Source of the DNA: a bacterium
GTDB taxonomy: Bacteria; Planctomycetota; UBA1135; UBA2386
Length of the DNA: 64,000 nucleotides
NCBI GenBank assembly: GCA_024743115.1
Contig: JANSXC010000002.1
Span: 38,207-102,206, forward strand
Direction of reading: 5' to 3'
Shown here: positions 13,315-55,739 of the stretch, piece after piece
Layout of the letters: the number at the start of each line of letters is the position of its first letter
Position numbering within the stretch: the first letter of the stretch is position 1
Program-made: the position numbers and the translations under genes
Notes under the pieces: model-generated
Databases searched by the model: none
What the model was told of the DNA's origin: nothing
Seen by the model: the letters and a program-made list of their open reading frames with translations, nothing else

Positions 13315-14451
13315 ATGACCCGAGCTATCGCCAACTGTTCTCTTGCTCTCGCCGCCACGCTCGCGACCCTCGCCGCCCTGCCCGGCCAGAACGTCGGCCT
13401 CGCGCTCACGAACGGCATCGACGGCTACGTCGAGATCCCGTACGACCCAGCGCTCGTGCCCGCGACCGGCATCACGCTCGAGGCCTGGATTACCTATGAC
13501 GACAGCACGCTGCCGGCCGGTTGGCGCTATCCGACGGTCGTGCGGCAGAACATTACGCCGCAGCAGGAGGCCTACTTCTTGCGTATCGAGGCCGGCAACT
13601 CGGGGCAGCGGACGTTGCGCTGGAAGGTCGTGACCCAAGGCAACGGTGCGGCGGTCTGTGACTGGTCGTTCACGCCCGGCCAGCTCCTGACCTGGACGCA
13701 CGTCGCGGCGACCTACGACGGCAACACTGCGGCGCTCTACATCGACGGCAATCAGGTCAGCACCGCCCCGGCGAACGGCCAACCCCTCTGGGATCGCGGT
13801 GGCGAGCTGCGCATCGGCAAGGGCGATGACTCCGGTGGCCCGATCGAGGTCTGGAACGGCGAGATCGACGAGGTGCGGCTGTGGCCGTTCGCGCGGTCGG
13901 CGGCCGAGATCCAGCACGACAAGGACTTCGCGTTGGCGCTCGTGCCGGGGGCGGTTTCGACGTGGAACCTGGACGGTCACACGCTCGACACCTCCAACAA
14001 CCTGTTCGGCAGTGCGATCGGTGCTGCGAACTTCCTGAACAACTCGCTCGTGCTGCCGTTCTTGCCGCTCGCATCGGGCGTCGAGGTCGGCACCGGCACC
14101 GCCGGCTGTGGCCCGTTCCACATCACGTTCGGCAGCCTGCCGCAGGCGGGCAACCTCGACTTCCAACCGGTGTGCACCGGGGCGCCGCCCAACGCGCCGA
14201 CATTCCTCGCGATCGCGTTCCAGACCGCGGCGACGCCGCTGGCGATCGCGGGCATCGAGTTCTGGCTCGATCAGGGCTCCTCGGTGCTCGTGCTGTCGAC
14301 GACGGACGGCGCCGGGGTGTCGCGCCATCCCGCACCGTTGCCCGCCTGGTTGCCGGTCGGCCAGCAGCTGGCGTTCCAGTACGGCTTCGTCGATGGCTGT
14401 GGCAGTCAGGGAGTCACGGCGAGCGCGGCGCTCGAAACCCTGTGTCAGTAA
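13315..14451 (+). CDS. Secreted LamG (concanavalin A-like lectin/glucanase) domain protein with shared C-terminal module
   Basis: 378-aa ORF with a signal peptide (...LATLAALPGQ). LamG pattern (LEAWITYDD...WTHVAATYDGNTAALYIDG...GEIDEVRLW). The tail belongs to the shared C-terminal module (see findings). Confidence 0.85.
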   Translation: MTRAIANCSLALAATLATLAALPGQNVGLALTNGIDGYVEIPYDPALVPATGITLEAWITYDDSTLPAGWRYPTVVRQNITPQQEAYFLRIEAGNSGQRTLRWKVVTQGNGAAVCDWSFTPGQLLTWTHVAATYDGNTAALYIDGNQVSTAPANGQPLWDRGGELRIGKGDDSGGPIEVWNGEIDEVRLWPFARSAAEIQHDKDFALALVPGAVSTWNLDGHTLDTSNNLFGSAIGAANFLNNSLVLPFLPLASGVEVGTGTAGCGPFHITFGSLPQAGNLDFQPVCTGAPPNAPTFLAIAFQTAATPLAIAGIEFWLDQGSSVLVLSTTDGAGVSRHPAPLPAWLPVGQQLAFQYGFVDGCGSQGVTASAALETLCQ

Positions 14452-14497
14452 CCCCGCAGCGGTTACTCCGACCCAGAAGCTGCGCGCGGCGGCGTGA

Positions 14498-16630
14498 TCA
14501 GTTCTGAGTCAGCGTGACCTGGCGAACCGTCCACGGCAGCTTCACGGCGGGCCCGGCGCGCACGACGATCCTCCCGGCTTCGATCGTGCCGGTGACGCCC
14601 GCCGTCGCCGGCGTGATCTCGACGTGCCACGTGGATGCCGCGGCCTCGACGTCGCCGAGCAGGTCGGGCCCGAGGTCGAGCGTGACCTCCTGCTGCGCGC
14701 GGACCTGTAGTGCGAGTTCACCGGACGGCAGCGCGATCACGCCGTGGCGGCGGTTCTCGAGGAGCGCGTCGGCGAACTCCTTCGTTGCGAGGAGCCGTTC
14801 GGTGGTCATCGGTTCGTTGCGCACCATGATCGCTCGCGATGGGCGCAATGCGCCGAGCAGGTGGCCGGGGACCTCGATGCGGTTCTCGGTCACCGCGATC
14901 CCGGCGCGACCCTGGACCCGAACCCAGACGTAGCTCGTGATCGGGCCCATCAGGCCGTGAGCCCAGGGGCGCTTGTCGAGGTCGAGCACCATGAGTCGGT
15001 AGTCGGCGAGGAATCGTGGGTCGGTCTCGAGCTCGAGTCCGCTGAGGAACACCGGCAGCGGCATCCCGGGAGGTTTCGCGAACTGGATCAGGTCCGGTGC
15101 GCGATCGAGCACATAGCGGCCGTTGCCCCGCATGTGGCCCTGCGTGCGAACGAGGCCGCCGCGTTGTGCTGCGGCCGCGGCCCAGTCCGGCGTCGCGGTC
15201 GTTGCAATCGTGCGGTCGCAGAGCCCGAGCATGTCGAGGGCGGGCAGTCGCGAGTAGAACGGCACGGCGCCGGCGGCATCGACCGCGATCGTCGGCTGCT
15301 CCGCGTCGAACGCCTGGCCGAGCACTTCGCCGATCACCTTGCCCTGCCATTCCCACGTCTCGCTGCGGTTGAAGACACACAGTGGTTCGCGGCGGGTGAT
15401 CGCGACGTTGCCGGCCGTGCCGGCGGCTGCGAGCAGCACCAGACCACCCGCGAGCATGCGGTGGGCGGGGAGTCGGCGCGCGGCCCAGGCGATGAGCAGG
15501 CCGAGCGGCGCGAGTGCCGGCTGCATCAGGCGGTAGCCGGCGAAGTGGTCCCCGCCGACGCTCGCGAGGTAGAGCAACCAGGCGAGCAGCGGCAGGACCA
15601 GAACCGGGACTGCTGCCCGAGTCGAGCGCCGGCACAGCAGGCCGACCGCGGCCGCGAGCGCGAGCCAGCCCAGGCCCTGGACCGTCCACAGGCCGTCCTT
15701 GATGTAGATCCAGCCCGCACCCCATGCCGTGCCGTCGAGGTCGACCTTGACGTGCGCGGTGTTGGGCAGCCAGTCGCCGTAGTAGACCAGTCGGAACGCG
15801 ACCTGGAGCGCGAGTGCGAGCGCCGGCAGCGCGCCGAACGCGAGGATGCGCGAGGCGGTTGCGCCCGCGCCGTGCCGCCAGAGGGCGGGAGCCAGGGCTG
15901 CCCCGGCGGTCAGGGCCCAGAGCGGACCGTCCGGCCGGGTCCAGACCAGCAGCGCGAATGGCACGCCGCAGGCCAGCAGCCGGCCGGTCGCCGGAGGCGG
16001 AGAGTCGATGGGGTTGGACCGTTCGAGCAGGTGCAGCAGGCCGCGCAGGCCCCAGGCGAGCAGCAGCATCACGAGCGGGCCCTCGAGCCCGCTTGCGGTC
16101 CAGCTCATGACCTGGGGCGAGCTGGCTACGAGCAGCGGAGGCAGCGCGGCGAGCAGGGCGCCGGTCGGGGTGCGGGGCCGAGCTGCTGCGGCGAGGAGAA
16201 CGAAGGTCGCGCCGGTGGCAACGAAGCCCAGCAGGCGGGCGGCGGCGACGAGATCGAGCCCGATCGCTCCAAGTCCGGCACAGAGCAGGACCCACAGCAG
16301 GTTGCTGTAGCCCTCCACCGCGGCACCTGGGCTCCACGTCAGGCCATCACCTGACAGCAGGCGGGCGCTGAACCGCAGCGAAATGAACGCGTCGTCGCTG
16401 AAGAATGGCCAGCACCAGGCGATCTGGATGGCGGCGAGCGCCACTGCCGGGGCGGTGGCAAGGGCCAGCAGGCCGGCCGAGAGGCGGCTTTCGAGCGGTG
16501 GCGATGCGTCCAACGTGGGTAATGTACGGCAACCAGCGAGACGCCGCGACGAAACTTCGCGACGGTTCGGCGCGGATTCCGTCCACTTGTTCCCGTGGGG
16601 CGGGTTCCTATGTTCCCGTCTCTGCACCAT
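14498..16630 (-). CDS. Polytopic membrane protein, GT-C-like glycosyltransferase candidate, with soluble C-terminal domain
   Basis: The ORF is open to 16969, but its first 113 codons are low-complexity. ATG 16630 precedes many hydrophobic helices. The first loop, DDAFISLRFSARLL, resembles the DD motif of GT-C enzymes. The start is uncertain. Confidence 0.65.
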   Translation of the reverse strand: MVQRREHRNPPHGNKWTESAPNRREVSSRRLAGCRTLPTLDASPPLESRLSAGLLALATAPAVALAAIQIAWCWPFFSDDAFISLRFSARLLSGDGLTWSPGAAVEGYSNLLWVLLCAGLGAIGLDLVAAARLLGFVATGATFVLLAAAARPRTPTGALLAALPPLLVASSPQVMSWTASGLEGPLVMLLLAWGLRGLLHLLERSNPIDSPPPATGRLLACGVPFALLVWTRPDGPLWALTAGAALAPALWRHGAGATASRILAFGALPALALALQVAFRLVYYGDWLPNTAHVKVDLDGTAWGAGWIYIKDGLWTVQGLGWLALAAAVGLLCRRSTRAAVPVLVLPLLAWLLYLASVGGDHFAGYRLMQPALAPLGLLIAWAARRLPAHRMLAGGLVLLAAAGTAGNVAITRREPLCVFNRSETWEWQGKVIGEVLGQAFDAEQPTIAVDAAGAVPFYSRLPALDMLGLCDRTIATTATPDWAAAAAQRGGLVRTQGHMRGNGRYVLDRAPDLIQFAKPPGMPLPVFLSGLELETDPRFLADYRLMVLDLDKRPWAHGLMGPITSYVWVRVQGRAGIAVTENRIEVPGHLLGALRPSRAIMVRNEPMTTERLLATKEFADALLENRRHGVIALPSGELALQVRAQQEVTLDLGPDLLGDVEAAASTWHVEITPATAGVTGTIEAGRIVVRAGPAVKLPWTVRQVTLTQN

Positions 16631-16693
16631 GCCTTCGGCCTGGTCCACGCCGGTCCGAAAGCCTGCCAGCTGCTGCGATTCCGCAGACCGACC

Positions 16694-16732
16694 CCGCAAC
16701 TCGCTTCCGCAACTCGCTTCCGCAACCCGCCG
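16694..16732. repeat. 13-bp tandem repeat, about 3 copies (CCGCAACTCGCTT x2 then CCGCAACCCGCCG)
   Basis: Read directly in the divergent intergenic region between the genes starting at 16630 (-) and 16788 (+). Confidence 0.8.
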
Positions 16733-16787
16733 TCCCGCCGCCCACTGTCCCCCAGGGCCGGGCCCGACAGCCAGAGATCGAAACCCG

Positions 16788-18104
16788 ATGCGACGAACGA
16801 CCCTGCTGCTTCTGACGACCGCGCTCGTGCCCCTCGCCCCGGCGCAGGAACCGGCCGAGTCGGAGCGACCGGGGCAGCAGCAGACGGCTGGCCAAGAGAC
16901 GGCTGGGCAGCAGGGGGAATCGCCGGTGATCCGGGTGCGGTCGGCCTCGGCCGGGACGATCCTCGACATCGCGGGGGGATTCGGGTTCCGCGACGATCTG
17001 CCCGACCTGCCTGAGGACGGGCACTACGAGCTGGTCGTGGACGCGGATCGCGAGGTGGCGGTCCGCGCCGGCTCGGGCGCGGTCGGCTACCTCGAGTTCC
17101 GGGTCGATCCGGGCGCGGTGATGGAGCTGTTCGCGGATGAGATCAAGAGCGTCAAGGGCATCGCTCAGGGTGTTGCGGTCATGGCGATGACCCAGCAGGG
17201 ATTCTCGGCGAAGGAGGCGACCGGCATGATGCGGTCGCTGTTCGAGTTTCCGTACCTGCTCGAGAGCGCCGAACTCGTGCTGCCGCGGAACCCGAAGCAG
17301 TTCGAGGACCACGGGCTCGAGATGCGGGTGGCGGTGACGGCGCAGCCGGGCACCCAGGTCGCGGCACTCTTCGAGCGGCTGGTGCCTGCTGGTGAAGGTG
17401 CACCGGCGCTGCCGCGGGACGACGAGCGGCTGCTCGGAATGCAGCTCTCACTCGCGAACGATGCACTCGGGCCGCTGATGGGGCCGTTCCTCGACTTCGG
17501 CCTGTCGTTCAGCTACACGGACCCGGAGGCGCGCAAGCAGGCCAAGAAGCTCTCGAAGGAACTCGTCGAGCTCTACGACGGTGGCTTTGCGTTCGCGATC
17601 TCGAAGGGCATGCAGATGGAAGCGCTCTACGGCTTCTTCGATTCCGACAAGCTCGCGACCAAGCTTCACAGCGACGAATACCATCAGATGATGGTCGCGC
17701 AGCAGCCCGGCCGTGACATCGAGGTGGAGATCGAGCGGTCGGCGTTCGAGCACCGGGGTTCGAAGTTCATGCGCATGACCATGTACAACGACGGACCGCC
17801 GAACCCGATGATGCCGAACGACGAGATGAATCAGTTCTTCGGTGCGGTCGGTCGCTACCTCGTGATGGGCGGTTCCAAGGAGCGGGCGCAGAAGCTCGCC
17901 GAGACGATTGCCGAGCAGCAACTGAAGCGCGGCGCCCTCGCCGGTGGCGCGATCATGACGCTCGAGATGAACCTCCTGGGCTGGCTCGACGCGATGAAGC
18001 AGGCGATGCCCGTCGGGCGTGCAGCCAAGAAGATGCCGAAGCGCGTCAACCTGCAGCTGTTCGCGAAGCAGCGCACGCTCAGTGCGGTGATCCGAGCGCA
18101 GTGA
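16788..18104 (+). CDS. Secreted hypothetical protein
   Basis: The ORF is open from 16383. ATG 16788 yields a signal peptide, MRRTTLLLLTTALVPLAPAQ. Balanced composition (K, E, F, M-rich). No family recognised. Confidence 0.7.
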   Translation: MRRTTLLLLTTALVPLAPAQEPAESERPGQQQTAGQETAGQQGESPVIRVRSASAGTILDIAGGFGFRDDLPDLPEDGHYELVVDADREVAVRAGSGAVGYLEFRVDPGAVMELFADEIKSVKGIAQGVAVMAMTQQGFSAKEATGMMRSLFEFPYLLESAELVLPRNPKQFEDHGLEMRVAVTAQPGTQVAALFERLVPAGEGAPALPRDDERLLGMQLSLANDALGPLMGPFLDFGLSFSYTDPEARKQAKKLSKELVELYDGGFAFAISKGMQMEALYGFFDSDKLATKLHSDEYHQMMVAQQPGRDIEVEIERSAFEHRGSKFMRMTMYNDGPPNPMMPNDEMNQFFGAVGRYLVMGGSKERAQKLAETIAEQQLKRGALAGGAIMTLEMNLLGWLDAMKQAMPVGRAAKKMPKRVNLQLFAKQRTLSAVIRAQ

Positions 18105-18156: not shown

Positions 18157-18160
18157 CTGA

Positions 18161-19318
18161 TCAGCTCGTTGCCGATCCGGTGGCGGCGAGGATGGCCGGC
18201 AGTTCGTCCCAGGCCAGCTCACCGTCGACGAAGGCACGGAGCGCGGGGCTGCCGCTGAGGATGTCGATCGGCGCCTTCTCGGCCTCGTACTCGTAGGGCG
18301 GCGGCAGCCACTCGAAGCGGTCGGGCCAGAGTTCGCGGACGGTGCGCAGCAGCACGGCCGTCGTGCGCACCGGCCGGAACGTCGCGGGGTCGGTGACGTG
18401 CAGGAAAAGGCCGCCGCAGGGTTCGCCGGCGTGTTTCTGGAACGTCGACTCGAAGCGAACGGGGCGCAGCGCGACGCCGGGCAGGTCGTGTTCGAGTGCT
18501 GTGTCGCGCAGCCGGAACGGGTCGATGAACGGGGCGCCGAACTGTTCGAACGGCGTCGTCGTGCCGCGGCCTTCGCTGAGGCGCGTGCCTTCGAGCAGCA
18601 CCTGGCCCGGGTAGACGAGGGCGCCAGCGAAGCGCGGCAGGTTGGGTGAAGGCGGGATCCACTCGCGGCCGAGTTCGGGCCAGAGCTGGTCGCGGGCGAC
18701 GCCGTTGCATGGGACCACGTGCAGGTCGGTGGCGAGACCGAGCAGGTCATTGCACCGGTGTGCGAGTTCGCCGAGCGTCAGGCCGTGCCGCAGCGCGATC
18801 GGCGCGCCGCCGACGAAACTCTCGAACGCCATGTCGAGCATGGGCCCCTCGACCTCTTCGCAGCCCAGTGGGTTGGGGCGGTCGAGCACGAGCACCGGCA
18901 GGCCCGCCGCGGTCGCGGCGGCCATGCAGTTGGTCAGCGTCCACGCGTAGGTGTAGACCCGCGTCCCGACGTCCTGAAGGTCGACGACGAGCAGGTCGAG
19001 GCCGCGGAGCATCTGCGGCGTCGGCCGGCGCGTCTCCGAGTAGAGGCTGTGGACCGGGATGCCGAGTCGCGGATGCACGCCGTGCGCGGTCTCGACCATG
19101 TTGTCCTGCTCGGTCGACCACAGGCCGTGCTGCGGGCCGAACAGGGCGGCGAGGCGGTCGCCTAGCACCGCGTGCAGGCGATCCGCGGCGTGCACGAAGT
19201 CGCGATCGACCGACGCCTGGTTGCAGACGAGGCCGACGCTGCGACTTTGCTGCAGGATCGCGGGCGGAGCCTCGCAGCAGGCTTCGAGCCCGATCCAGAT
19301 CGCGGTGGTTGCGGTCAT
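18161..19318 (-). CDS. DUF1343 / NamZ-like exo-beta-N-acetylmuramidase family protein, apparently cytoplasmic
   Basis: The ORF is open to 19378, but that start would overlap the upstream gene, so ATG 19318 is preferred. Family motifs LVVDLQDVGTRVYTYAWT and LDRPNPLG. No signal peptide from ATG 19318. Confidence 0.85.
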   Translation of the reverse strand: MTATTAIWIGLEACCEAPPAILQQSRSVGLVCNQASVDRDFVHAADRLHAVLGDRLAALFGPQHGLWSTEQDNMVETAHGVHPRLGIPVHSLYSETRRPTPQMLRGLDLLVVDLQDVGTRVYTYAWTLTNCMAAATAAGLPVLVLDRPNPLGCEEVEGPMLDMAFESFVGGAPIALRHGLTLGELAHRCNDLLGLATDLHVVPCNGVARDQLWPELGREWIPPSPNLPRFAGALVYPGQVLLEGTRLSEGRGTTTPFEQFGAPFIDPFRLRDTALEHDLPGVALRPVRFESTFQKHAGEPCGGLFLHVTDPATFRPVRTTAVLLRTVRELWPDRFEWLPPPYEYEAEKAPIDILSGSPALRAFVDGELAWDELPAILAATGSATS

Positions 19319-19325
19319 GGCCGGA

Positions 19326-20564
19326 TCACTCGTAGAGCAGGAACGGCTTGCGCCGCATCTGGAACACGCGCAGGTCACTGCGCCAGCTCGCGATGATCTC
19401 TTCCGCGGCCTTGCCGGCGAGGATCGCGCTCGCGGCGTCGGCGTCGCGCAGCAGCCAGTCGAGGCGCTTGGTGTCCCAGTCGTCGCGGTAGAGCTTGCGC
19501 AGCGCGCACAGCAGGTGGATGCCAGTGCGCACGGGTTGAAACGCGCGCCAGTTCGTGATCGCGATGTCGACGCCGCCGCACTTGGTACCCTTGTGCTTGC
19601 TGCTGTTCGGCGTGAAGCGGATCGGGACGAACGTCACGCCCGGGAGGTTCTGCGCGCGCAGTTCGGCGGCGAGCTCACGGCCGTCGATCCACGGTGCGCC
19701 GACGACCTCGAACGGCGTGTCGGTGCCGCGGCCGACGGACACGTTGGTGCCCTCGACGAGGCCGATGCCGGGGTAGAGCAGCGCCTGCGTCAGGCAGCGC
19801 ATGTTCGGTGACGGATTGACCCACAAAAGACCGGTGCGATCCCAGAGGTCGGCGCGGTGCCAGCCCGTGCACTGCACGACCTCGAGCTCGGCCTGGATGC
19901 CGTCCTCGCCGGCGATCATGCGCGCGAGTTCGCCCGCGGTCATGCCATGGCGCAGCGGCACGCGGTGGGCGGCGATGAAGCTGCGGCGATCGTCCGCGAG
20001 GACGGGGCCGGCGATCGCGATGCCGCCGATCGGGTTGGGGCGATCGAGCACGACGAAGCGCAGATCGTGCTTGGCGGCGGCCTCGAGCGCGTTCCGCATC
20101 GTCGAGACGTAGGTGTAGAACCGGCAGCCGATGTCCTGGATGTCGAACACGAGCGTGTCGACGCCCTGCAGGGATTCCGGGGTCGGCGTGCGGTGCTTGC
20201 CGTAGAGCGAGAACACGCGCAGGCCGGTCGCGCGGTCGCGCGAGTCGCCGACCTTCTCGTCGAGGATGCCGTCCCAGCCGTGTTCGGGCGAGAAGAGCGT
20301 GACGACCTCGACGCCCTTGGCGTTCGCGAGCACGTCGACCGTGCGCCGACCGTCGATCGTGCGGCCGGTGTGGTTGGTGATGATGCCGAGCTTGCGGCCG
20401 CGCAGGCGGGCGCAGTCCTCGGCCGCGAGCACGTCGATGCCGGTCTGCACCTGGGCAGTCGCCTGGTCGGTCGCGAGGGCCGACACGGCGAGCAGCGTGC
20501 ACGCTGTGGCACTGGCCCGGCGTGCGAGTCGGTTCGAGAGTTGGCGGAGGGCTGGCAGCTTCAT
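19326..20564 (-). CDS. DUF1343 / NamZ-like exo-beta-N-acetylmuramidase family protein, exported paralog
   Basis: 412-aa ORF with an N-terminal signal peptide (...CTLLAVSALATDQATAQ). Motifs LVFDIQDIGCRFYTYVST and LDRPNPIGG. The ATG overlaps the stop of the SSS gene (ATGA). Confidence 0.88.
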   Translation of the reverse strand: MKLPALRQLSNRLARRASATACTLLAVSALATDQATAQVQTGIDVLAAEDCARLRGRKLGIITNHTGRTIDGRRTVDVLANAKGVEVVTLFSPEHGWDGILDEKVGDSRDRATGLRVFSLYGKHRTPTPESLQGVDTLVFDIQDIGCRFYTYVSTMRNALEAAAKHDLRFVVLDRPNPIGGIAIAGPVLADDRRSFIAAHRVPLRHGMTAGELARMIAGEDGIQAELEVVQCTGWHRADLWDRTGLLWVNPSPNMRCLTQALLYPGIGLVEGTNVSVGRGTDTPFEVVGAPWIDGRELAAELRAQNLPGVTFVPIRFTPNSSKHKGTKCGGVDIAITNWRAFQPVRTGIHLLCALRKLYRDDWDTKRLDWLLRDADAASAILAGKAAEEIIASWRSDLRVFQMRRKPFLLYE

Positions 20565-22015: not shown

Positions 22016-22090
22016 GGGCGCGCCGCAAGCTACCGCCGCGGCGCGGGCGAGAACAGGATCCGGCGATTCGGCGAGCCGACAGTCGACGTC

Positions 22091-23083
22091 TCAGTAGAGC
22101 CGCAGTCGCAGGGCGTTGCTGGTTGCGAACGGCAGCGGCGAGGTGGCGTTGAGGTCGAGTGGCACCATCTGGATCGCGAGGAAGACGTTCGCGAGCCCCG
22201 TGGAGTTGGGGATCGCGAAGCCGAGGCGCGCGTGGCCGGCGTAATCGGGGCCGCGGGTGTCGCCGTTGCCCGCAAACAGCAGCAGCGTGCTGATCGAGTC
22301 GGTGTTCTGCATGCAGGCCGGGTTGAGGCCTGGAACCGCGAGGGGGGTGAAGTTCGGGTTGCCGCCGATCACCGCGAACACTGCACCGCCGGGCGGATTG
22401 CCGCACGTCTCGTAGGCGAACCGGGAGTTGCCGATCGTCGGTGGCTCGTTGGTGAAGGCGGTCGGAACTTCGCCCGTCGACAGCGGGCAGCCCTGCCCTT
22501 GCGTCGTCACGCCCTGATCGTCGAGCAGATTGCAGAACAGCTGGAACTTCGGCGCGCTCGTCGTGGCGGCGCTCCAGGCGCCGGTGCCCGCGCGGCTCAC
22601 GTGAGTGAGGTTGAAGGTGCCGTTCGGTTCCGTGATGAGTTGGGTGAAGCCGGGCTCGACGAACACGAACCAGGTCGGGACGCCGGGCTGCAGGGTGACG
22701 GCGCGATCGAAGTTCGCGCCGCGCCAGCCCGCGGCTCGTGTGTTGTCGATCTCCCAGACGCCGCCGCCGAGGCGGCTACCCGGTTCGCCGTTGACCTCGT
22801 CCCAGAGTTCGACGGCGAGGAACGCGTCGCCCGGATAGGAGGCGTTCCTCGTGAAGACCTTGGCGGCCTGAACCGTGAAGTTGGCGTTGGCCGGCGGCGT
22901 GAACCGCCAGGCGAAGTAGTTCTGACCGGCGAGGCTGTACGACGACACCGCGGTCGACGAACTCGTCGTGGTAGCGTTCGCAGCCAGGCACGGTGCGGTC
23001 TGGGCGCTGAGCGCGGCCGGCGTCGTGGCTAGCAGGACGGTCAGGAGGGACAGGCGGATCTCGGGTCGCATCGAACTTCTCAC
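22091..23083 (-). CDS. Secreted hypothetical protein with shared C-terminal module
   Basis: 330-aa ORF with a signal peptide (...LLATTPAALSAQ). The C-terminal ~125 aa end in ...FLAIQMVPLDLNATSPLPFATSNALRLRLY, matching the shared module. Confidence 0.75.
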   Translation of the reverse strand: MRSSMRPEIRLSLLTVLLATTPAALSAQTAPCLAANATTTSSSTAVSSYSLAGQNYFAWRFTPPANANFTVQAAKVFTRNASYPGDAFLAVELWDEVNGEPGSRLGGGVWEIDNTRAAGWRGANFDRAVTLQPGVPTWFVFVEPGFTQLITEPNGTFNLTHVSRAGTGAWSAATTSAPKFQLFCNLLDDQGVTTQGQGCPLSTGEVPTAFTNEPPTIGNSRFAYETCGNPPGGAVFAVIGGNPNFTPLAVPGLNPACMQNTDSISTLLLFAGNGDTRGPDYAGHARLGFAIPNSTGLANVFLAIQMVPLDLNATSPLPFATSNALRLRLY

Positions 23084-25380: not shown

Positions 25381-25381
25381 C

Positions 25382-26314: not shown

Positions 26315-26373
26315 GGTGGCCTCGCGCGGCCTCCCGGCAGCCGCAGGCTCACGGTCTTGCCTGCCGTGCAGGC

Positions 26374-30393: not shown

Positions 30394-31530
30394 TCAGAAG
30401 AGCACGAGTGGCGCGGGGTTGCTGACCCGCACGAGGTTGGTGCCGAGGCCGTATGTGGCGCCCTGCCACATGATCTGCACGCCGAGAACCCAGGGTAGGT
30501 TCGGCACCGGGAACGAGCTGGTGAGCGCGGCGCCGCTGCCCGTCACCTGCACGGCTGCGGACTCGAGCCAGAACGGATCCGGAATGCCCGCGAAGAACTC
30601 GGGTTGATCGGGGAAGCCGACGAACAGCACGCCCATCTCGCCGGGCTGGAGGCCCAGGTTGCCGAATACGTTGCCCGTCGCGGGGGTCCTCCCGGTGGTG
30701 AGGGGCGGTACCCGGCGGGTCTCGACGGTGATGCCGGGTTCGACGGGGCCGGTCGAGCCCAGCAACTGGACGCTCGGATCGAAGACCGCGACACCGTCAC
30801 CGACCAGGCCGGGCTGAACGGTCGAGGCGTGCGATTGCAGCGTGGTGTCGAGGTTGAGAACGAGAGTGCTCTCGATCATGAATCCGACGCCGGTCGGGAA
30901 GGCGCTCGCGGGATTGCTGTCGAGGGTGCAGTCCGTCATGTGGACTCGGCTGCCGCCGATCCGGAAGCAGAAGTTTTCCGACGTCAGGTTGCAGTGATGC
31001 AGTGCGACGTTGCTGTTGTAGCTCTCGAGCGGCGACACGAAGAATCCGGCGCCGCGCAGGTCGCAGGCGCGGAGGTAGACGTGTTCGCAGTTCGTCGCCC
31101 GGACTCTGCCGCGTTGGATCGTCGAGGGCGAGTTCGTGCTGCAGTCCTCGATGAAGATCGGTCCGGCGGAGTCGCGGCAGCTGATCGCGACGCTGCCGAA
31201 CACGATGTCGAACCGGAAGCCGCGGATGCTGACGAACTGGGTCGGGCCGAGGTCGACGACTTCGATCGGCGGAAACTGGAACAGGTTGCCGAGCACGGAC
31301 ACGCCGGCCTCGGCGTCCACGGTGAGGCTCTTGCCGACGACGCGGAAGTTGTCGTAGGTGCCGGCGCGGACCCGGATCACGGCGCCATCCGGTGCGGCCG
31401 CCGTGGCCGTCGCGATCGAGGTGTAGTTCGTGCCGGGGCCGTTGCTGGCGTCGACGATGAACACCTGGGCGGGCAGGAACGCGGCGAGGAGCATTGCCGC
31501 CGCGAACGGGGAGACTGGGGGGCTGACCAT
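30394..31530 (-). CDS. Secreted right-handed beta-helix (pectin-lyase-fold-like) protein with shared C-terminal module
   Basis: The ORF is open to 31572. Internal ATG 31530 gives the signal peptide MVSPPVSPFAAAMLLAAFLPAQ and avoids overlap with the divergent gene. Repetitive beta-helix-like segments. C-terminal module ...WVLGVQIMWQGATYGLGTNLVRVSNPAPLVLF. Confidence 0.75.
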   Translation of the reverse strand: MVSPPVSPFAAAMLLAAFLPAQVFIVDASNGPGTNYTSIATATAAAPDGAVIRVRAGTYDNFRVVGKSLTVDAEAGVSVLGNLFQFPPIEVVDLGPTQFVSIRGFRFDIVFGSVAISCRDSAGPIFIEDCSTNSPSTIQRGRVRATNCEHVYLRACDLRGAGFFVSPLESYNSNVALHHCNLTSENFCFRIGGSRVHMTDCTLDSNPASAFPTGVGFMIESTLVLNLDTTLQSHASTVQPGLVGDGVAVFDPSVQLLGSTGPVEPGITVETRRVPPLTTGRTPATGNVFGNLGLQPGEMGVLFVGFPDQPEFFAGIPDPFWLESAAVQVTGSGAALTSSFPVPNLPWVLGVQIMWQGATYGLGTNLVRVSNPAPLVLF

Positions 31531-37115: not shown

Positions 37116-38357
37116 TCAGCGCACGAGCGTGTGCAGCCCGTTCGTCGCGGACACGCCGAATGCGCCGCCGTTGTCGAGGTAGAAGCTCTGCGAGTAGATG
37201 TTGAGTCCGTTGAACACCGGGTCCAGCGGCAGGAACAGCGGCAGGTTCCAGGCGCCCGTGCCGTCGAGGATGTGGAAGTAGCTGTTGGTGACGTCGATCA
37301 GTAGCTGACCGTTCAGGAACGGGATCGAGTTGGGCGTGAAGCCGACGGCGAGCAGGCCCGAGGCGCCGGCGGGGCCGTTTTGGATGTCGATCGCCATCAG
37401 GTTGCCGCGGCCGGCGCAGCCACTGCCCGTGATCGTCGGCACGCCGTTCGTGCCCGGGATGCCGTTGCCGTAGTTCACGAAGCTGCCGCAGACGCCGAAG
37501 CCCGTTACGCGCACGACGCGGTTGCCGGCACCGAACGTCGAGAAGAACAAGTCGCCCGTGACCGGGTCCGTGCAGGCGCCCTCGGTCTGGCTGAGGCCTG
37601 TGAGTAATGGACGGCGAGTGTTGGGAATCGGGTTGCCGGCCTGATCCAGGTCGTAGAGCGCCACCGTGCCGGCGCTGTACTCACTGACGATCACCGTCGT
37701 GTAGTCCGGGATCAGCGCGGAGCCGGGTGGCGCGTAGAGGTAGCCCTCGGGGCCACCCTGGATCGTGACCGGGCCGTTGGCGGCTGTCAGATCGAAGGTG
37801 CCGTTGCCGTCCGGGGTCACCGTGAAGCCGTACACCGCCGAGAAGTTGTACGACACCACCTTGAGTTGTCCGGCGCCGGGGAAGTTGGCTGGCACGAAGT
37901 TGCCCGTGCCGGTCGAGGACAGGACCCCGAAGCTGCTCAGGGTGATCCATTTATCGGGGCTGCTGCTACCCGGCTTGATCTGGCCGAGTCGGTTGTCGCT
38001 GTAGGTCGTGAAGCAGAGCACGTTGCCTGGCCCGTAGAACAAGCCACCGTCGATCCGCGGCGCGGTTGCGACCATCGTCGCGGTGCCGGAGAACCCGGTC
38101 ACGAAGCCGGAGGCATCACGGACGACATCGACCTCGTAGATCGCGGCGCCGCTGCCGTTGGCATTGCCGCCGATGAGGAGCTTCGACGGATCGCCGGCCT
38201 TGAAGACGATGCCCCCGTAGTTCGTCGGCACACCCGGAACCGAACCGAGGTCGGTCCAGGAGTAGACCGTGTCGTAGGGCGGTTGCAGTTGCTGAGCAGT
38301 GAGCGTGGAGGCCAGCAGCAGCGTGCCGGCGGCGAGGGTCAGGGGATGGCGCGTCAT
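37116..38357 (-). CDS. Secreted beta-propeller-like protein with shared C-terminal module
   Basis: 413-aa ORF with signal peptide ...LLLASTLTAQ. Gly/Thr/Asn-rich beta-repeat body. The tail ...FNGLNIYSQSFYLDNGGAFGVSATNGLHTLVR matches the shared module. Confidence 0.75.
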   Translation of the reverse strand: MTRHPLTLAAGTLLLASTLTAQQLQPPYDTVYSWTDLGSVPGVPTNYGGIVFKAGDPSKLLIGGNANGSGAAIYEVDVVRDASGFVTGFSGTATMVATAPRIDGGLFYGPGNVLCFTTYSDNRLGQIKPGSSSPDKWITLSSFGVLSSTGTGNFVPANFPGAGQLKVVSYNFSAVYGFTVTPDGNGTFDLTAANGPVTIQGGPEGYLYAPPGSALIPDYTTVIVSEYSAGTVALYDLDQAGNPIPNTRRPLLTGLSQTEGACTDPVTGDLFFSTFGAGNRVVRVTGFGVCGSFVNYGNGIPGTNGVPTITGSGCAGRGNLMAIDIQNGPAGASGLLAVGFTPNSIPFLNGQLLIDVTNSYFHILDGTGAWNLPLFLPLDPVFNGLNIYSQSFYLDNGGAFGVSATNGLHTLVR

Positions 38358-45797: not shown

Positions 45798-47828
<2,031 letters not shown>

Positions 47829-47840
47829 GAGAACCGAACC

Positions 47841-48944: not shown

Positions 48945-48948
48945 CAGC

Positions 48949-50508
48949 ATGGGCAACCTCACCCCGGAACTCGCGGCGCTCCGCGACGAGACCCGTGACC
49001 TAGCGAAGAGCTACGGACTCGACTTCTACGAAGTGATCTTCGAACTCGTTGACTACGACGAGCTCAACATGATCGCGAGCTACGGCGGCTTCCCGACCCG
49101 GTATCCGCATTGGCGCTTCGGGATGGAGTACGAGCAGCTCAGCAAGAGCTACGCCTACGGGCTGTCGAAGATCTACGAGCTCGTGATCAACAACGATCCG
49201 TGCTATGCGTACTTGATGCGTAGCAACGCGATCACGGAGCAGAAGCTCGTGATGGCGCACGTCTACGGCCACTGCGACTTCTTCAAGAACAACGCGTGGT
49301 TCTCGCACACGTCGCGCAAGATGATGGACGTGATGGCGAATCATGGCTCGCGCATTCGGCGCTACATGGATCGCTACGGGCAAGAGCGGGTCGAGAACTT
49401 CATCGACCTCGTGCAGTCGCTCGAGAACCTGATCGATCCATACTCGCCGTACATCGATCGCGGCACGGACCGCCGCAGGGCGCCGCCGAGGAAGGACGAC
49501 CAGGATTCGCGTGAAGTGCAGAAGATCGCGGCCAAGGACTACATGGACCGCTACATCAACCCGCCCGAGTTCCTCGAGCGGGAGCGGGAGCGTCTGGATC
49601 AGGAGGATCAGCAGGCGCGGCAGTTCCCGGCGCGGCCCGAGCGCGACGTGCTCAAGTTCCTGCTCGACTACGCGCCGCTCGAGACTTGGGAGCAGGACGT
49701 GCTCGCGATGTTGCGCGAGGAGGCCTACTACTTCGCCCCCCAGGGCATGACGAAGATCATGAACGAGGGCTGGGCCGTGTTCTGGCACAGCCACATGATG
49801 ACGCGGCATCTATGTGACGCGTCCGAGATCGTCAACTACTGCGACACGCATAGCGGCACGCTCGGCACGAGTCCGGGCCAGCTCAATCCCTACAAGCTCG
49901 GCGTCGAGCTCTTCCGCGACATCGAGGAACGCTGGAACACCGGCAAGTTCGGCGTCGAGTACCAGTCGTGCGACGACCCGGAGGTGCGCAAGAACTGGCA
50001 TCGACCGACCAACGAGGGGCGGGCGAAGGTGTTCGAGGTGCGGCGGATCTACAACGACATCACGTTCGTCGATGAGTTCATCACGCCGGAGTTCGCGGAG
50101 GCGCAGAAGATGTTCGTCTACGGTCAGGATCCGCAGACGGGCGAGATCGTGATCCTCGACCGCGACTACACCAAGGTGAAGACGCAGCTGCTCGAGGCGC
50201 TGACGAACCACGGCAACCCGATCATCAAAGTGGTCGATGCGAACCACAAGAATCGCGGCGAGCTCTACCTCGTGCATCAGTGGGTCAAGGGTGACCTGCA
50301 GCTCGATGAGGCGATGCTGACACTGCAGGGGCTGTTCCAGCTCTGGAAGCGACCGGTGCACATCGAGACCGTCCAGGACGGCAAGGGGCGGCTGCTGAGT
50401 TTCGACGGCGAAGAGGCGTCGACCCAGGAGGTTACGAGTTCCCATCCGGTGACCGGCAGGGTCGGTGTCGGCTCCGAGAAGCAGTCCGAGGCCGAAGCCG
50501 AGAACTGA
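48949..50508 (+). CDS. spoVR: SpoVR/YcgB family protein
   Basis: 519-aa ORF. Motifs [15 protein letters not shown] and [18 protein letters not shown]. It starts 4 nt after the DUF444 stop. Confidence 0.9.
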
Positions 50509-50646: not shown

Positions 50647-53148
50647 ATGCCGAAACCACTTGTCCGTTGGGCGACGAAACCGCTCGCACGGATCGCTCTC
50701 CCGCTCGTGCTCTCGACGACCGCACTAGCTGTCCTCACACCGCTCGCAACCTCCCAGTGCGCGACGGACTGGGTCCCGGGCGATGGCTACCCCGGCGTCC
50801 ACGGCAACATCTACGAGGCGGTCTGGTGGGATCCCGATGGTGCGGGTCCACGCGGTGAAATCCTCGTCGTCGGTGGCAACTACCTGCGGATCTTCACGGT
50901 TGCCGCGGCCAACCTGGCGAGCTGGGACCCCACGACGGGCGAGTGGGCAGCGTGGCCGCCGGGGCCGAGCAATGACGTGTTCTCGCTGGCCGTGATGCCG
51001 AACGGGGATCTCGTTGCCGGAGGGTGGTTCACGCACATCGCGGGGCAACGGGTCACGAACATAGCTCGCTTCAACGGTGCGACCTGGTCGCCGCTCGGGG
51101 GCGGAGTCACGGGCCCGGCGAACGCCTTCGTCAACGCGATCGTGCCGTTGCCGAATGGTGACCTCATCGCGGCAGGCAAGTTCGACATGGCGGGTGGCGT
51201 GCCGTGCAACTCGATCGCGCGCTGGGATGGCTCCAGCTGGTCGCCGCTCGGGGCCGGCATCAACGGCACGGTGCAGGCCGCGGCGCGCGCGCCGAACGGC
51301 GACCTCTTCGTCGGCGGCAACTTCTTCATGGCAGGCGCGCTTGTGGTCAACTCCGTTGCGCGCTGGGACGGTTCGCAGTGGCATACGCTCGGGACCGGGG
51401 TCGGCAGTGGCGGGGTCGACCGGCTGCTCGTCGAGCCGAACGGTGACGTCCTGGTCGGCGGTGGGTTCACGACCGCCGGCGGCCAGGCCATTGGCTACCT
51501 GGCGCGGTGGGACGGCAGTGGTTGGAGCGCGCTCGGGGCCGGTCCGGGCCAGCGGGTGCGGAGCCTGCGGCCGCTGACGAACGGTGATCTGCTGGCGGGC
51601 ACGCAGGCTGGCGCCGTGATGCGTTGGAACGGGCAGGCGTGGTCGCCCCTCGGCGGCGGGCTCGGTACGGCCCCGCCGACCGCGTTGGCGGAGCTGAGCG
51701 GCGGCGACGTGCTGGCGCTCGGCTATCCGTTCCCGCCCTTTCGCGGCGCCGCGCGCTGGAACGGTGCGACCTGGCGTTCGCTGCCAAGAGGGTTCGACGA
51801 ACGGATCTATACCATCGGGCATGACGCGGCCGGCGACCTGGTCGTCGGTGGTCACTTCTTGAGCTACGACAACGACCCGTCCACTTCGTTCCTGGCTCGG
51901 TTCGACGGGGCCGCCTGGTCGGGGATCGGTGGCGGTGTCCGAGGCCCGGTGCACGCCACGGCGGTGCTGCCCAACGGCGACCTCGTGGTGGCCGGGGACC
52001 TCTCGTCCGCGGGCGGGCGCGCCGTGCAGAAGATCGCCCGGTGGGATGGCGCGGCCTGGCATCCGATGGGGAGTGGTTTCGGTTTCCGCGTCAACGATCT
52101 CGCGGTGCTGCCGAATGGCGATCTCGTCGCGGCGGGCGCGTTCGTCACGAGTGGCTCGCGCTCCATGCGGCGCGTGGCGCGCTGGGATGGCGTCGATTGG
52201 CGGTCCATGGCGGGCGGTATGGACGCCGAGGTGCGCGATCTGACCGTCATGCAGAACGGGCACCTGCTGGCAGGGGGCTACTTCTCCCAGGCCGGCGGCG
52301 GCTTCGCGCCGTTCGTTGCGGTCTGGGACGGCACCGCGTGGGGGCTTCTGGGAAACAACAACGGCAGCTGGCCCGCGTGGGAGGTGGACACGGTCACGCA
52401 GCTTCGGAATGGCGACGTGATCGTCGGCGGTCGCTTCCAGTCGGCCGGTGGCGTGTCGTGCAACAACGTCGCGAGGTTCGACGGCGCGAACTGGTCGTCG
52501 GTCGGTCCGGGTGTCGGCTACCGCGCGGTCACCGTTCAGGAACTGCCCAACGGCGACCTGGTGCTCGCCGGATCCTGGGAGACGATCCGCTGGGACGGCG
52601 TCCAGGCCACGCCGTTCGCGACCATCGGGATTCAGGCGATGGCCATGACGAAGTCCGGCGACCTCGCGGTTGGGGGTTCCTTCGTCGTCGACCACCCCAA
52701 CGTGTCGGCCTACTTCGGCCGGATCCGGACCAGCTGTCCCGCGGATGTGCGGTCGCTGCCGACCGGCTGTGTCGGCAGCACGGGTCCCGTTGAACTGGCC
52801 GCGGTTGGACTGCCGTGGGTCGGGGCCGACTTCACGTCGCGCGCCACGGGCTTCACCCCCGGTTCGATCGGTGTTGCGCTGCTCGGGCTGACGTCACCGG
52901 ATATCCCGTGGACCTGGCTCTGGCCCAATACGGGGCCGGGCTGCCAGCAGCTGGCGAGTCAGGAGGCGATCCTGCTGACCTTGCCGCAAGGCTCTGCCGC
53001 GGGCTTCTCGTTCACGATTCCGAACGATCAGGCGTTCGTCGGTCTGCAGCTGTATCACCAGTTCCTGCACTTCGAGGTCGACGTCAACAACCACCTCGGT
53101 CGGCTGAGCGCTTCGAACGCGCTCGAGCTCGTGATCGGCGCGTTCTAG
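50647..53148 (+). CDS. Secreted repeat (beta-propeller-type) protein, about 13 x ~47-aa ARWDG..W..LG repeats, with shared C-terminal module
   Basis: 833-aa ORF with signal peptide ...LTPLATSQC. Repeats such as LPNGDLIAAGKFDMAGGVPCNSIARWDGSSWSPLGAGINGTV. The tail is ...FVGLQLYHQFLHFEVDVNNHLGRLSASNALELVIGAF. Confidence 0.85.
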   Translation: MPKPLVRWATKPLARIALPLVLSTTALAVLTPLATSQCATDWVPGDGYPGVHGNIYEAVWWDPDGAGPRGEILVVGGNYLRIFTVAAANLASWDPTTGEWAAWPPGPSNDVFSLAVMPNGDLVAGGWFTHIAGQRVTNIARFNGATWSPLGGGVTGPANAFVNAIVPLPNGDLIAAGKFDMAGGVPCNSIARWDGSSWSPLGAGINGTVQAAARAPNGDLFVGGNFFMAGALVVNSVARWDGSQWHTLGTGVGSGGVDRLLVEPNGDVLVGGGFTTAGGQAIGYLARWDGSGWSALGAGPGQRVRSLRPLTNGDLLAGTQAGAVMRWNGQAWSPLGGGLGTAPPTALAELSGGDVLALGYPFPPFRGAARWNGATWRSLPRGFDERIYTIGHDAAGDLVVGGHFLSYDNDPSTSFLARFDGAAWSGIGGGVRGPVHATAVLPNGDLVVAGDLSSAGGRAVQKIARWDGAAWHPMGSGFGFRVNDLAVLPNGDLVAAGAFVTSGSRSMRRVARWDGVDWRSMAGGMDAEVRDLTVMQNGHLLAGGYFSQAGGGFAPFVAVWDGTAWGLLGNNNGSWPAWEVDTVTQLRNGDVIVGGRFQSAGGVSCNNVARFDGANWSSVGPGVGYRAVTVQELPNGDLVLAGSWETIRWDGVQATPFATIGIQAMAMTKSGDLAVGGSFVVDHPNVSAYFGRIRTSCPADVRSLPTGCVGSTGPVELAAVGLPWVGADFTSRATGFTPGSIGVALLGLTSPDIPWTWLWPNTGPGCQQLASQEAILLTLPQGSAAGFSFTIPNDQAFVGLQLYHQFLHFEVDVNNHLGRLSASNALELVIGAF

Positions 53149-53240
53149 TGCGAACATCGGGCCCGCCAGCGTCTGGGCACGGGGTCTCCGTGCCGGCGCG
53201 AAGCTTGCTGGCCCGCAATCCTGATACCTTGGAAGTTGCC

Positions 53241-55739
53241 ATGCCGAGACCTGTCGCCGTTCGTCTGATCGCTGCCACGATGCTCTGTCTGCCGCCGGCC
53301 ACCGCACAGTGCACGACGGGATGGGCCGTGGGGAATACGCCGGGCACTGGCCACGCCGTCGACGATGCCGCCTGGTGGGACCCGGACGGCAGCGGCCCGC
53401 TCGGTGAGGTGCTCGTGGTGACCGGCCGCTTCTCGGTGGCCGGCAACCAGTCGGTGCAGGGGCTCGCCGTATGGGATCCGGGCGTGGGGGAGTTCGTGCC
53501 GTTCGCGGGTTCTACGAGTCCGTCTCCCCACGGTGGTTCCCTCAGCGTCGGCCCCGCAGGGGAGCTCGTGTTCGGTGGGCGCTGGCAGTGGACCGGGAGT
53601 GGCTGGCAGGACTTCGGCGCGCCGCCGTGGTTCCTCGCGCCGGGCCTCGCGGCGCACCTGCCGAACGGCGATGTGGTCACGGCGCACACCTACTTCTACC
53701 CCTACTGTGGACTGTGCGGCCTGGTCACGTATGCCGACGTGCAGGTATGGAACGGCACGACCTGGACACGTCTGCCGGGGTTCCCCGGTTACCGCTACAA
53801 CCAGGCGACCGTTTCGGATCTGGCGGTCTTGCCGAACGGCGACGTAGTCGTCGTCGGCGCCTTCGCCGGCGGTAACGTAGCCGTCTGGGACGGGACGTCG
53901 TGGAGTAGCCTCGGCAGCGGCCTCAACGGCTATGTCCGAGCGGTCGACGTGATGAGCAACGGTGACCTGGTGGCCTGCGGTTCGTTCACACTGCCTGGTG
54001 GCGACGGCGTCGCGCGCTGGAACGGTACGAGCTGGGTGCCGGTCGGGGGCGGCGTCACCGGTTCGCCGTTGGGCGCCGTGGACCTCGAGGTGATGCCATC
54101 CGGCGATCTCGTGGTCGCGGGTTACGTGACGACTGCGGGGGGCGCGCCGGTGCAAGGCATCGCGCGTTGGGACGGCGCCTCGTGGTCGTCGATCGACGGC
54201 ACGGCGCGTGACCATTTCGGCGTGCGCAAGGTTCTGGCCGCGGCCAGCGGCGAGCTCTTCGCGGGCGGGTCGTTCCGATCGATCGGCGGCGCGGCCGCGC
54301 TCCACGTTGCGCGCTACGACGGTTCGGCCTGGCATGCGTTGGCGCCGGGCTTCGACGGCGCGATCTACGGCGCGCTCACGCGCAGGAACGGCAATCTCGT
54401 GGTCGCTGGCCGGTTCGAACTCGCCGGCACCCAGGCCTGTCGTGGCATTGCCGAATGGGACGGGACGAATTGGTCTCCGCTCGGTAGCGGCCTCGTCGAT
54501 GCCAGCGCCGTCGTGCCCGAGTTCGCGCTGCTCGAATTGCCGAGCGGCGATCTGCTCGTCGGTGGCGACGTGTCGCAAGCCGGTGGTGTCGCGGTCAACC
54601 ACATCGCGCGCTGGGACGGGGCGGCGTGGTCGGCGGTCGGCGCGGGCTTGCCGTACGCCGTGCGTTCTCTGAGCCTCGCCCAGAACGGCGACGTCATCGC
54701 CGGCGTTGGCGACTACCCGGGTCCAGGTGAAGTCTGGCGTTTCGACGGTGTCGCGTGGACGCGGCTCGGACCGACCGCCGACGGCGTCGTCAATGTGGTT
54801 CTGCATCTGCGGAACGGCGATCTGCTCGCGGGTGGGCGTTTCATGAACTTCGGCGGGGCGCCGGTGAGCCATCTCGCGCGGTGGGACGGCACCGCCTGGA
54901 GTGCCTACGCGGGTGGCCGATTCGCCGCCGTGACGGCGTTGCTCGAGGCCGCGAACGGGGATCTGATTGCGGGCGGCGAGTTCCCGGTCGCGGGCCTCAT
55001 CTCGCGCTGGGACGGCACTGCATGGTCGCGTTTCGGGCTCGGGCTCGAGAACTCGTCGGGACCGGCGGCCGCGGTGAACGGGCTGGTCGAGTTGCCCAAC
55101 GGCGATCTGCTGGCCACGGGATCGTTCGAGCGCAGTCCGGGCGCGAATGCGTGGACGCGAGGGGTCGCCCGTTGGGACGGCACCGAGTGGCTGCCGGTTG
55201 ACGACGGGCTCAACGACGACTGCGAGGCGGTGACCGTGATGCCGGACGGCAGCGTGGTCGTGGGGGGCAGGTTCACCGCCACGGTCACCAAGCCCGCGGC
55301 GTTCCTGGCGCGTCTCGCGACGGATTGCCCGGCGTCCGTTGCAACGTTGCCGACTGCCTGCGTCGGTCCGGCGGGCCCGGTCGAACTCGCGGCGGCGGCA
55401 TTGCCGTGGGTGGGCACGACCTTCCGTTCGACGGCTACCGGCTTCGCAGCCAACTCGCTCGGCGTCTCGCTGCTCGGGCTCGGCTCACCCGGCGTACCCT
55501 TGAACTGGCTGTGGTCGAACACGTTGCCCGGTTGCGAGCAGCTCGCCAGTCACGAAGCGATTCAGCTGGTGTTGCCGCAGGGCGGCGCAGCGAACTACGC
55601 GTTCACGATTCCGGCCGATCCCGTGTTTGCCGGGCTCGAACTCTTCCATCAGTTCTTGCACTTCGACCTCGACGCCAACAACAACCTGCTCACGCTGAGT
55701 TCGTCGAACGGTCTGCAGCTGGTGCTCGGCGCCTTCTAG
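53241..55739 (+). CDS. Secreted repeat (beta-propeller-type) protein, tandem paralog of 50647..53148, with shared C-terminal module
   Basis: The ORF is open from 52815. ATG 53241 gives the signal peptide MPRPVAVRLIAATMLCLPPATAQC. Same repeat architecture as its neighbour. The tail is ...FAGLELFHQFLHFDLDANNNLLTLSSSNGLQLVLGAF. Confidence 0.85.
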   Translation: MPRPVAVRLIAATMLCLPPATAQCTTGWAVGNTPGTGHAVDDAAWWDPDGSGPLGEVLVVTGRFSVAGNQSVQGLAVWDPGVGEFVPFAGSTSPSPHGGSLSVGPAGELVFGGRWQWTGSGWQDFGAPPWFLAPGLAAHLPNGDVVTAHTYFYPYCGLCGLVTYADVQVWNGTTWTRLPGFPGYRYNQATVSDLAVLPNGDVVVVGAFAGGNVAVWDGTSWSSLGSGLNGYVRAVDVMSNGDLVACGSFTLPGGDGVARWNGTSWVPVGGGVTGSPLGAVDLEVMPSGDLVVAGYVTTAGGAPVQGIARWDGASWSSIDGTARDHFGVRKVLAAASGELFAGGSFRSIGGAAALHVARYDGSAWHALAPGFDGAIYGALTRRNGNLVVAGRFELAGTQACRGIAEWDGTNWSPLGSGLVDASAVVPEFALLELPSGDLLVGGDVSQAGGVAVNHIARWDGAAWSAVGAGLPYAVRSLSLAQNGDVIAGVGDYPGPGEVWRFDGVAWTRLGPTADGVVNVVLHLRNGDLLAGGRFMNFGGAPVSHLARWDGTAWSAYAGGRFAAVTALLEAANGDLIAGGEFPVAGLISRWDGTAWSRFGLGLENSSGPAAAVNGLVELPNGDLLATGSFERSPGANAWTRGVARWDGTEWLPVDDGLNDDCEAVTVMPDGSVVVGGRFTATVTKPAAFLARLATDCPASVATLPTACVGPAGPVELAAAALPWVGTTFRSTATGFAANSLGVSLLGLGSPGVPLNWLWSNTLPGCEQLASHEAIQLVLPQGGAANYAFTIPADPVFAGLELFHQFLHFDLDANNNLLTLSSSNGLQLVLGAF

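Follow-up and report, generated by a model that had tools for sequence, protein, structure and literature searches.

Bacteroidota's type IX secretion system (T9SS) marks its cargo with C-terminal domains that are recognised by the models Por_Secre_tail (PF18962, TIGR04183) and, for type B, CHU_C (TIGR04131). The T9SS C-terminal domain is an Ig-like seven-strand beta-sandwich located at the C-terminus of Sec-exported cargo, where it is the signal for export across the outer membrane and is cut off by PorU (PMC4804311). It can dimerise by C-terminal strand swapping, and the layout of many cargoes with one tag defines it (PMC4804311). A Planctomycetota sequence with a similar layout was analysed here. 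The window, which is the whole stretch of 64,000 nucleotides, covers positions 38,207 to 102,206 of contig JANSXC010000002.1 (assembly GCA_024743115.1). Six of its genes, termed A to F, encode proteins with predicted signal peptides that end in a shared domain of ~125-135 residues. The T9SS C-terminal domain is the closest known system in logic, but the new domain is not a member of it by its sequence models. It is a lineage-specific C-terminal domain fused to many different Sec-exported heads in an uncultured Planctomycetota lineage, and the family is new to the Pfam, NCBIfam and PDB libraries searched.

Homology of the C-terminal Domains

Profile comparisons place a homologous C-terminal domain on all six window proteins. 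Pairwise similarity between the tails was weak on BLASTP (E 0.005-1) with the exception of E and F, which were 64% identical. Hidden Markov models (HMMs) were built leaving one tail out at a time and searched against a window set of 780 six-frame open reading frames (ORFs). The omitted tail was the best non-training match for A (1.3e-3), B (4.3e-4) and D (8.4e-6). With E and F omitted the best non-training matches were at 4e-6 and 1e-4. Tail C was not recovered among the 780 ORFs by this approach.

An external-only profile was then made from ~145 outside tails with no window sequence included. The six window tails ranked as the top six of the 780 ORFs, with E-values of 2.4e-58 (F), 2.6e-54 (E), 2.9e-11 (B), 2.5e-6 (D), 3.8e-3 (C) and 4.1e-3 (A), and the next ORF was at 0.3. 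B and D were aligned over model positions 9-137. For each of A, B, C and D, the real tail outscored 1000 of 1000 of its own shuffles. Tail A was matched at E 9.4e-5 over model positions 7-134 when B, D, E and F were added to the profile and A was left out, and hhalign gave 92% for A against the profile excluding it, 96.8% for B and 93.6% for D. On BLASTP tail B aligned at E ~1e-5 to the tails of outside propeller proteins. The outside-built profile includes E, F, B and D in the new family, and A once B, D, E and F are added. An earlier note on this DNA had proposed one collinear module on different heads, and the external-only profile, the shuffles and hhalign all bear out its homology.

Pfam and NCBIfam gave no match at E <= 1 for any of the six tails, and scans of both with alignment A2 (26 tails, being the six from the window and 20 from outside) gave nothing. 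The best match of the profile to PDB sequences was to unrelated proteins at E 0.55. The tails, which the earlier note had put forward as a candidate novel domain, are absent from all three. No description of a Planctomycetota C-terminal sorting domain was found in the literature, and the DUF5122/delta-60 repeat protein literature held nothing relevant.

Heads and Signal Peptides

The six gene frames had a GC content at third codon positions (GC3) of 0.84-0.89, supporting all six. The coordinates and the six tail strings quoted in the earlier note agree with the translations, and its descriptions of the heads were matched by Pfam, which gave Laminin_G_3 for A, nothing for B, propellers for E and F, and weak matches for C (Beta_helix) and D (SGL) (Table 1). 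It had described the six proteins as having different heads. Unrelated heads on one tail were found, but E and F are paralogues, giving five distinct head types and not six. The repeats of the E propeller are 13 NGD repeats, counted by eye, and E and F each have many full-length propeller homologues. The start of gene C is the ATG at 31530 and its protein is identical to the NCBI 'hypothetical protein' NXI31_02190 (bacterium), encoded on a contig of 562 kb. An exact record of protein D exists in a Logan assembly. All six proteins have the n-h-c layout of a signal peptide when read by eye, with an end summarised as A/Q (the slash marks the putative cut), and none has a lipobox.

Divergent Subfamily of Gene C

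Tail C is weak as a single sequence. Eighteen homologues of C were gathered, and a beta-helix-like head and an N-terminal 'AQxFxVDASNGPGT' motif are common to them. The profile of C and the 18 homologue tails aligned to the main family with an hhalign probability of 80.5% (P 1.3e-5, 97 columns). This C-family profile also matched tail D at 1.8e-4, tail F at 5.9e-4 and two outside proteins, one at 975-3641 of locus L003 (1.7e-8) and one in locus L006 (5e-4). Membership of C is found at the level of profile-profile comparison and reciprocal hits only. From these profiles, C is placed as a divergent Cys-less subfamily of the shared domain.

Gene C and the convergent GH3/beta-lactamase gene are separated by a gap that contains a remnant of a C-type tail. 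Along 172 nt its nucleotides are 71% identical to the 3' end of C, the frame switches part-way between two frames, and the C-family profile matched it at E 3.8e-8. The single remnant copy reported in the earlier note is therefore present, and is frameshifted.

Family Size and Distribution

The six-tail profile was searched against 1.84 billion representative proteins. At E <= 1e-3 the family comprised 7,361 representative clusters (50% identity), and the stricter cut-off of E <= 1e-10 left 915, a size in keeping with the large family that the earlier note had expected. The domain ended four residues or fewer from the protein end in 150 of the 150 matches listed and in P0001. Among the matches listed the head ranged in length from 0 to ~870 residues. 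Nearly all matches had one domain copy per protein, and an N-terminal hydrophobic run resembling a signal peptide was seen in 94 of 104 full-length members. Outside heads included Laminin_B, FG-GAP, PKD with a propeller, 6-7-blade and 13-blade DUF5122 propellers, BNR/Sortilin and unknowns.

All named sources were Planctomycetota metagenome-assembled genomes (MAGs) or unclassified 'bacterium', with no cultured member among the sources carrying the domain. The named records were all 'hypothetical' apart from one 'PKD domain-containing'. The 7.19-Mb MAG chromosome OZ245838.1 carries an E orthologue at the same place, after prkA-DUF444-spoVR, and at least five other family members. A genome scan with a closer alignment gave 4 loci. 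A word-indexed protein search was too insensitive, returning 1 match for the E tail and 5 for the 26-sequence profile.

Copies are dispersed among housekeeping genes. There are six in this 64 kb and four in 12 kb of L003, while L008 has three consecutive copies and L009, L010 and L011 have two apiece. Additional members (NXI31_18695) lie on other contigs of the MAG to which the window belongs. Arrays of tandem genes whose heads are mixed were seen in other Planctomycetota MAGs at L003 975-9523 and L008 10001-15958. The heads of these arrays were propeller, propeller, beta-helix-like and one further head. Such arrays suggest local duplication and head swapping.

Predicted Fold and Conserved Residues

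AlphaFold2 was run on residues 699-833 of E with an alignment of 69 sequences. The model was an eight-strand beta-sandwich with a mean predicted local distance difference test (pLDDT) of 97.2 and a predicted template modelling score (pTM) of 0.90. The beta-sandwich that the earlier note had raised as a possible common fold was found in this model of the E tail. It supersedes an earlier run on 6 sequences, which had a pLDDT of 72 and generic fold matches only. On Foldseek the pLDDT 97 model matched only generic Ig-like, VHH or FN3-type sandwiches with template modelling (TM) scores of 0.35-0.48. One match was below E 1e-3, a fungal effector with a TM score of 0.40. The BFVD viral structure library gave nothing at E <= 1e-3.

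The consensus of the 69 sequences reads L-x-x-x-C-P-A ... C-x-G-x-x-G-P ... L-P-W-x-G-x-T-F ... G-(F/L) ... P-L in its first part and G-C-x-L-L ... I-P-N-x-P ... G ... H-Q-x-L-Q ... S-S-N-x-L-x-L-T-x-G-x-F in its second. P94 and Q107 are invariant, and C10, G15, P25, G28, C68, G101, N126, L128 and G133 are at least 90% conserved. Read from the strand register of the model, Q107 and N126 would lie on the hydrophobic-core face of the last two strands, so their conservation looks fold-defining and does not suggest an obvious ligand pocket. The chain end is stereotyped. Glycine is at position -3 in 142 of 151 tails and F, L, Y or W is the last residue in 145 (F 99, L 23, Y 18, W 5).

Within the domain, Cys16 and Cys74 occur together and show 98-99% conservation. 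The cysteine pattern across the tails was CCC in 128 and.CC in 18, and D is without both conserved cysteines at the aligned positions. The co-occurring pair points to a disulfide, and thereby to folding outside the cytoplasm; most family members probably have one such bond. The Cys-Gly opening that the earlier note had attributed to all six tails holds in part, as C is without it and the 'VCGSF' of D is off the homologous Cys position in the alignment.

Further cysteines were seen in the propeller members. The dipeptide QC opens the mature chain (50755-50760 in E, 53307-53312 in F), and 69 of 104 full-length matches had a QC among their first 60 residues. The cysteine of 'CPA' (domain position 5, 87% conserved) stands just before the tail. 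The QC and CPA cysteines might form a propeller-closing disulfide tying the first strand of the tail to the N-terminus.

Comparison With Known Systems

Like the T9SS C-terminal domain, the new domain closes the chain of Sec-exported proteins whose many heads are unrelated, and it has many cargoes per genome scattered around the chromosome. The T9SS domain is a compact Ig-like beta-sandwich with largely fold-defining conservation (PMC4804311), and the new domain is predicted to be a compact sandwich whose conservation also looks largely fold-defining. They differ in size, the new domain being ~125-135 aa with 8 strands and the T9SS C-terminal domain ~70-100 aa with 7 strands, and a conserved pair of cysteines and a G-x-F terminus set the new domain apart. 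Its host lineage is Planctomycetota and not Bacteroidota. No match to PF18962, TIGR04183 or TIGR04131 was obtained at E <= 1 for the six proteins and the 26 A2 tails. No T9SS C-terminal domain structure was among the top 50 PDB fold matches, and the TM score was <= 0.48 for all 50.

A constant C-terminal tag, variable secreted heads and large paralogous sets are also features of the PEP-CTERM/exosortase, LPXTG/sortase and GlyGly-CTERM/rhombosortase systems. Those tags consist of a short motif, a transmembrane helix and a basic tail, whereas the new domain is a folded soluble unit of ~130 residues. No hydrophobic helix closes the tails, which finish with a beta-strand followed by G-x-F or with LVR, LRLY or LCQ. 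Identity with PEP-CTERM, LPXTG or GlyGly-CTERM was ruled out by the tail sequence, and there was no NCBIfam match.

Dockerin and PPC domains are likewise terminal accessory modules common to many secreted proteins. In contrast to them, the new domain had no match to PF00404 or PF04151 at E <= 1 and no Ca-binding repeat pattern, and its heads are mostly non-catalytic. The terminal aromatic residue of outer-membrane beta-barrel proteins is recognised by the beta-barrel assembly machinery (BAM), and the new tails resemble this C-terminal beta-signal in that 122 of 151 end in F, Y or W after an alternating-hydrophobic beta-strand. The likeness is limited to the last residues, as the new domain is a predicted soluble sandwich and not a barrel.

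Possible Role of the Domain

The shared tail may be an envelope-targeting module acting in export and/or anchoring, a reading held tentatively and at somewhat below an even chance. Targeting is plausible because of the Sec signal peptide, the strict terminal position, the conserved Cys pair and the G-x-F end. It is architecture that argues for targeting. The domain itself is real. If the reading is correct, Sec would carry the protein across the inner membrane and the signal peptide would be cut at the A/Q site. Head and tail would fold in the oxidising periplasm with formation of the putative disulfide. One common envelope component would then recognise the tail and pass the protein over the outer membrane or retain it at the surface. 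One tag could in this way serve tens to hundreds of cargoes per genome, in a manner like T9SS but unrelated to it. A more specific proposal is that the tail is the cargo tag of an undescribed outer-membrane export or surface-attachment pathway in this uncultured lineage, an independent T9SS analogue with ~100 proteins per genome and its own translocon and/or processing enzyme; this is doubtful.

Several observations weigh against a targeting role. No secretion or sortase-type gene was found in the 64-kb window, nor was any PorU, PorV, Sov or PorKLMN gene. The absence of sortase, exosortase and T9SS genes and of known sorting motifs, noted earlier from the translations, was upheld within the window. 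Related loci amounting to ~140 kb showed no partner, no processing enzyme and no neighbour that was conserved, and the neighbours of nine outside copies had nothing in common. Propeller members have no long linker before the domain and the CPA cysteine may tie the tail to the head, which argues against simple cleavage. Protein 8156-9523 of L003 extends 35 residues past the domain (LGPHGAQPVSRIFLSGSLAANGTVSGSSYLVTNFY), again with an aromatic end, and is the sole non-terminal case seen. The matches listed are dominated by propeller heads and only sample the diversity of the 7,361 clusters. Beta-sandwiches of the Ig-like type also occur very often as simple binding or spacer units.

Chance or compositional similarity, in proteins rich in Ala, Gly and Leu from a genome with 68% GC, would account for the weak BLASTP scores between most tails and for the loss of C on leave-one-out. 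It was rejected as extremely improbable: the external-only profile put the six tails first of 780 ORFs, 0 of 1000 shuffles reached the real scores, 915 outside matches were obtained at E <= 1e-10 and the tail alignment supports a pLDDT 97 model. In the main rival to targeting, the tail would be an ordinary Ig-like module that serves outside the cell in binding, in adhesion or as a spacer, similar to a lectin or carbohydrate-binding module, and that is encoded last and has no dedicated machinery. The generic Ig-like, VHH and FN3-type fold matches and the lack of machinery in the window and related loci agree with this, as do the LamG, PKD, propeller and BNR heads, which are typical of adhesins and glycan-binding proteins and often occur with accessory beta-sandwiches. 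Such modules normally vary in position and occur in tandem, whereas this domain is single and terminal in the 150 matches listed and P0001. The stereotyped G-x-F-COOH end, and invariant polar residues that appear from the strand register to be buried and leave no surface site, also speak against a binding or spacer module, and it is considered possible but not the expected outcome.

A dockerin-like assembly module, in which the tail would build a multi-protein surface complex by binding an S-layer-like or scaffold protein or by exchanging strands with other tails, is unlikely. Many heads with one constant terminal module are known from cellulosomes, the last strand and aromatic end are conserved, and the T9SS C-terminal domain dimerises by strand swapping (PMC4804311); against this, no dockerin or cohesin model was matched, and the surroundings of the copies showed no candidate scaffold in which receptor domains are repeated. 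A folding or protection propeptide that aids export or folding of the head, is then removed and has no localisation role is likewise unlikely. The strictly C-terminal position on secreted proteins and the independent compact fold would suit it, and PPC-type extensions are known on secreted enzymes. There was however no match to PF04151 or other Pfam models and no conserved linker or cleavage motif before the domain outside the propeller subgroup, and the unrelated, mostly non-enzymatic heads make a common folding helper unlikely.

Outer-membrane protein transport and surface display in Planctomycetota are poorly understood. If targeting holds, a tag on thousands of unannotated proteins would mark the surface or secreted proteome from sequence and would be a display tag for Planctomycetota. 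A recognisable tag would also be a handle for finding the matching machinery by phylogenetic profiling, the approach by which exosortase and rhombosortase were found. Pfam and InterPro would gain from the tails a new domain family with a confident model. Should the domain prove to be just a binding module or spacer, it would still be a large new family, of routine interest.

Gene Content of the Window

The window is 68% GC and is ordinary chromosome. Its genes include uvrC, ftsY, nusB, ribH and one for a recQ-like helicase, together with the prkA-DUF444-spoVR operon and a cluster for N-acetylmuramic acid (MurNAc)/peptidoglycan recycling. The features are listed in Table 1.

Table 1. Tail-bearing genes and other features of the window (positions in the window; signal peptides read by eye, with a slash at the putative cut).
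Feature	Position	Strand	Description
Gene A	13315..14451	+	Laminin_G_3 head (E 4e-27, Pfam); C-terminal domain ~14071-14442
Gene A signal peptide	~13315-13386	+	...LAALPG/Q
Gene B	22091..23083	-	Signal peptide ...ALSA/Q; head without family match; C-terminal domain ~22097-22510
C-type tail remnant	~30078-30315	-	Frameshifted
Gene C	30394..31530	-	Beta-helix-like head (weak Beta_helix); divergent Cys-less C-terminal domain ~30400-30774
Gene C signal peptide		-	...AFLPA/Q
Gene D	37116..38357	-	Small propeller-like head (weak SGL); C-terminal domain ~37125-37490
Gene D signal peptide		-	...STLTA/Q
Gene E	50647..53148	+	13-repeat DUF5122/Rax2/delta-60 propeller; C-terminal domain 52726-53145
Gene E signal peptide		+	...LATS/QC
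Gene F	53241..55739	+	13-repeat Rax2/DUF5122/delta-60 propeller; C-terminal domain 55314-55736; tandem paralogue of E
Gene F signal peptide		+	...PATA/QC
MurNAc/peptidoglycan-recycling cluster	18161-30073
Two NamZ exo-muramidases	18161-19378, 19326-20564	- (both)	Recycling cluster
SSF sodium:solute symporter	20561-22015	-	Recycling cluster
MurQ-like SIS etherase	23243-24145	+	Recycling cluster
SGL lactonase-like protein	25382-26314	+	Recycling cluster
GH3 (NagZ-like) and beta-lactamase-fold fusion	26552-30073	+	Recycling cluster; 1173 aa
ORF	31548-32423	+	291 aa, without annotation
Wzy_C and TPR membrane protein	32428-34500	-	O-antigen-ligase/O-oligosaccharyltransferase (O-OTase) type
prkA-DUF444 (yeaH-like)-spoVR operon	45798-50508
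Three to four ORFs	55795-61131		Without family matches
Big_5 protein	61128-63965	-	945 aa, five Big_5 Ig-like domains
ORF	3597-5537	-	646 aa; good GC3, no Pfam match
ORF	14498-16969	-	823 aa; good GC3, no Pfam match
ORF	16383-18104	+	573 aa; good GC3, no Pfam match

Gene B, with its unmatched head, stands in the middle of the recycling cluster. This cluster was rejected as a functional link for B, as the context is common to no other copy. The Wzy_C/TPR gene adjoins gene C, and the 291-aa ORF is near it. A role of the Wzy_C/TPR gene as attachment enzyme was rejected since it is not beside the C homologues in L010 or L011.

The prkA-DUF444-spoVR operon is directly upstream of gene E. Its start is spanned by the 44-48 kb composition bin, in which GC falls to 0.635. 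The same order of prkA, DUF444 and spoVR followed by the E orthologue is found at 1-2886 of L002 (OZ245838.1). The ORFs without family matches and the Big_5 protein are downstream of F. On OZ245838.1 a 982-aa Big_5 protein and unannotated genes of similar size also follow the E orthologue, which indicates that the block is syntenic between the two. The ORFs at 14498-16969 and 16383-18104 overlap by ~590 nt as listed, so at least one of the two starts is wrong.

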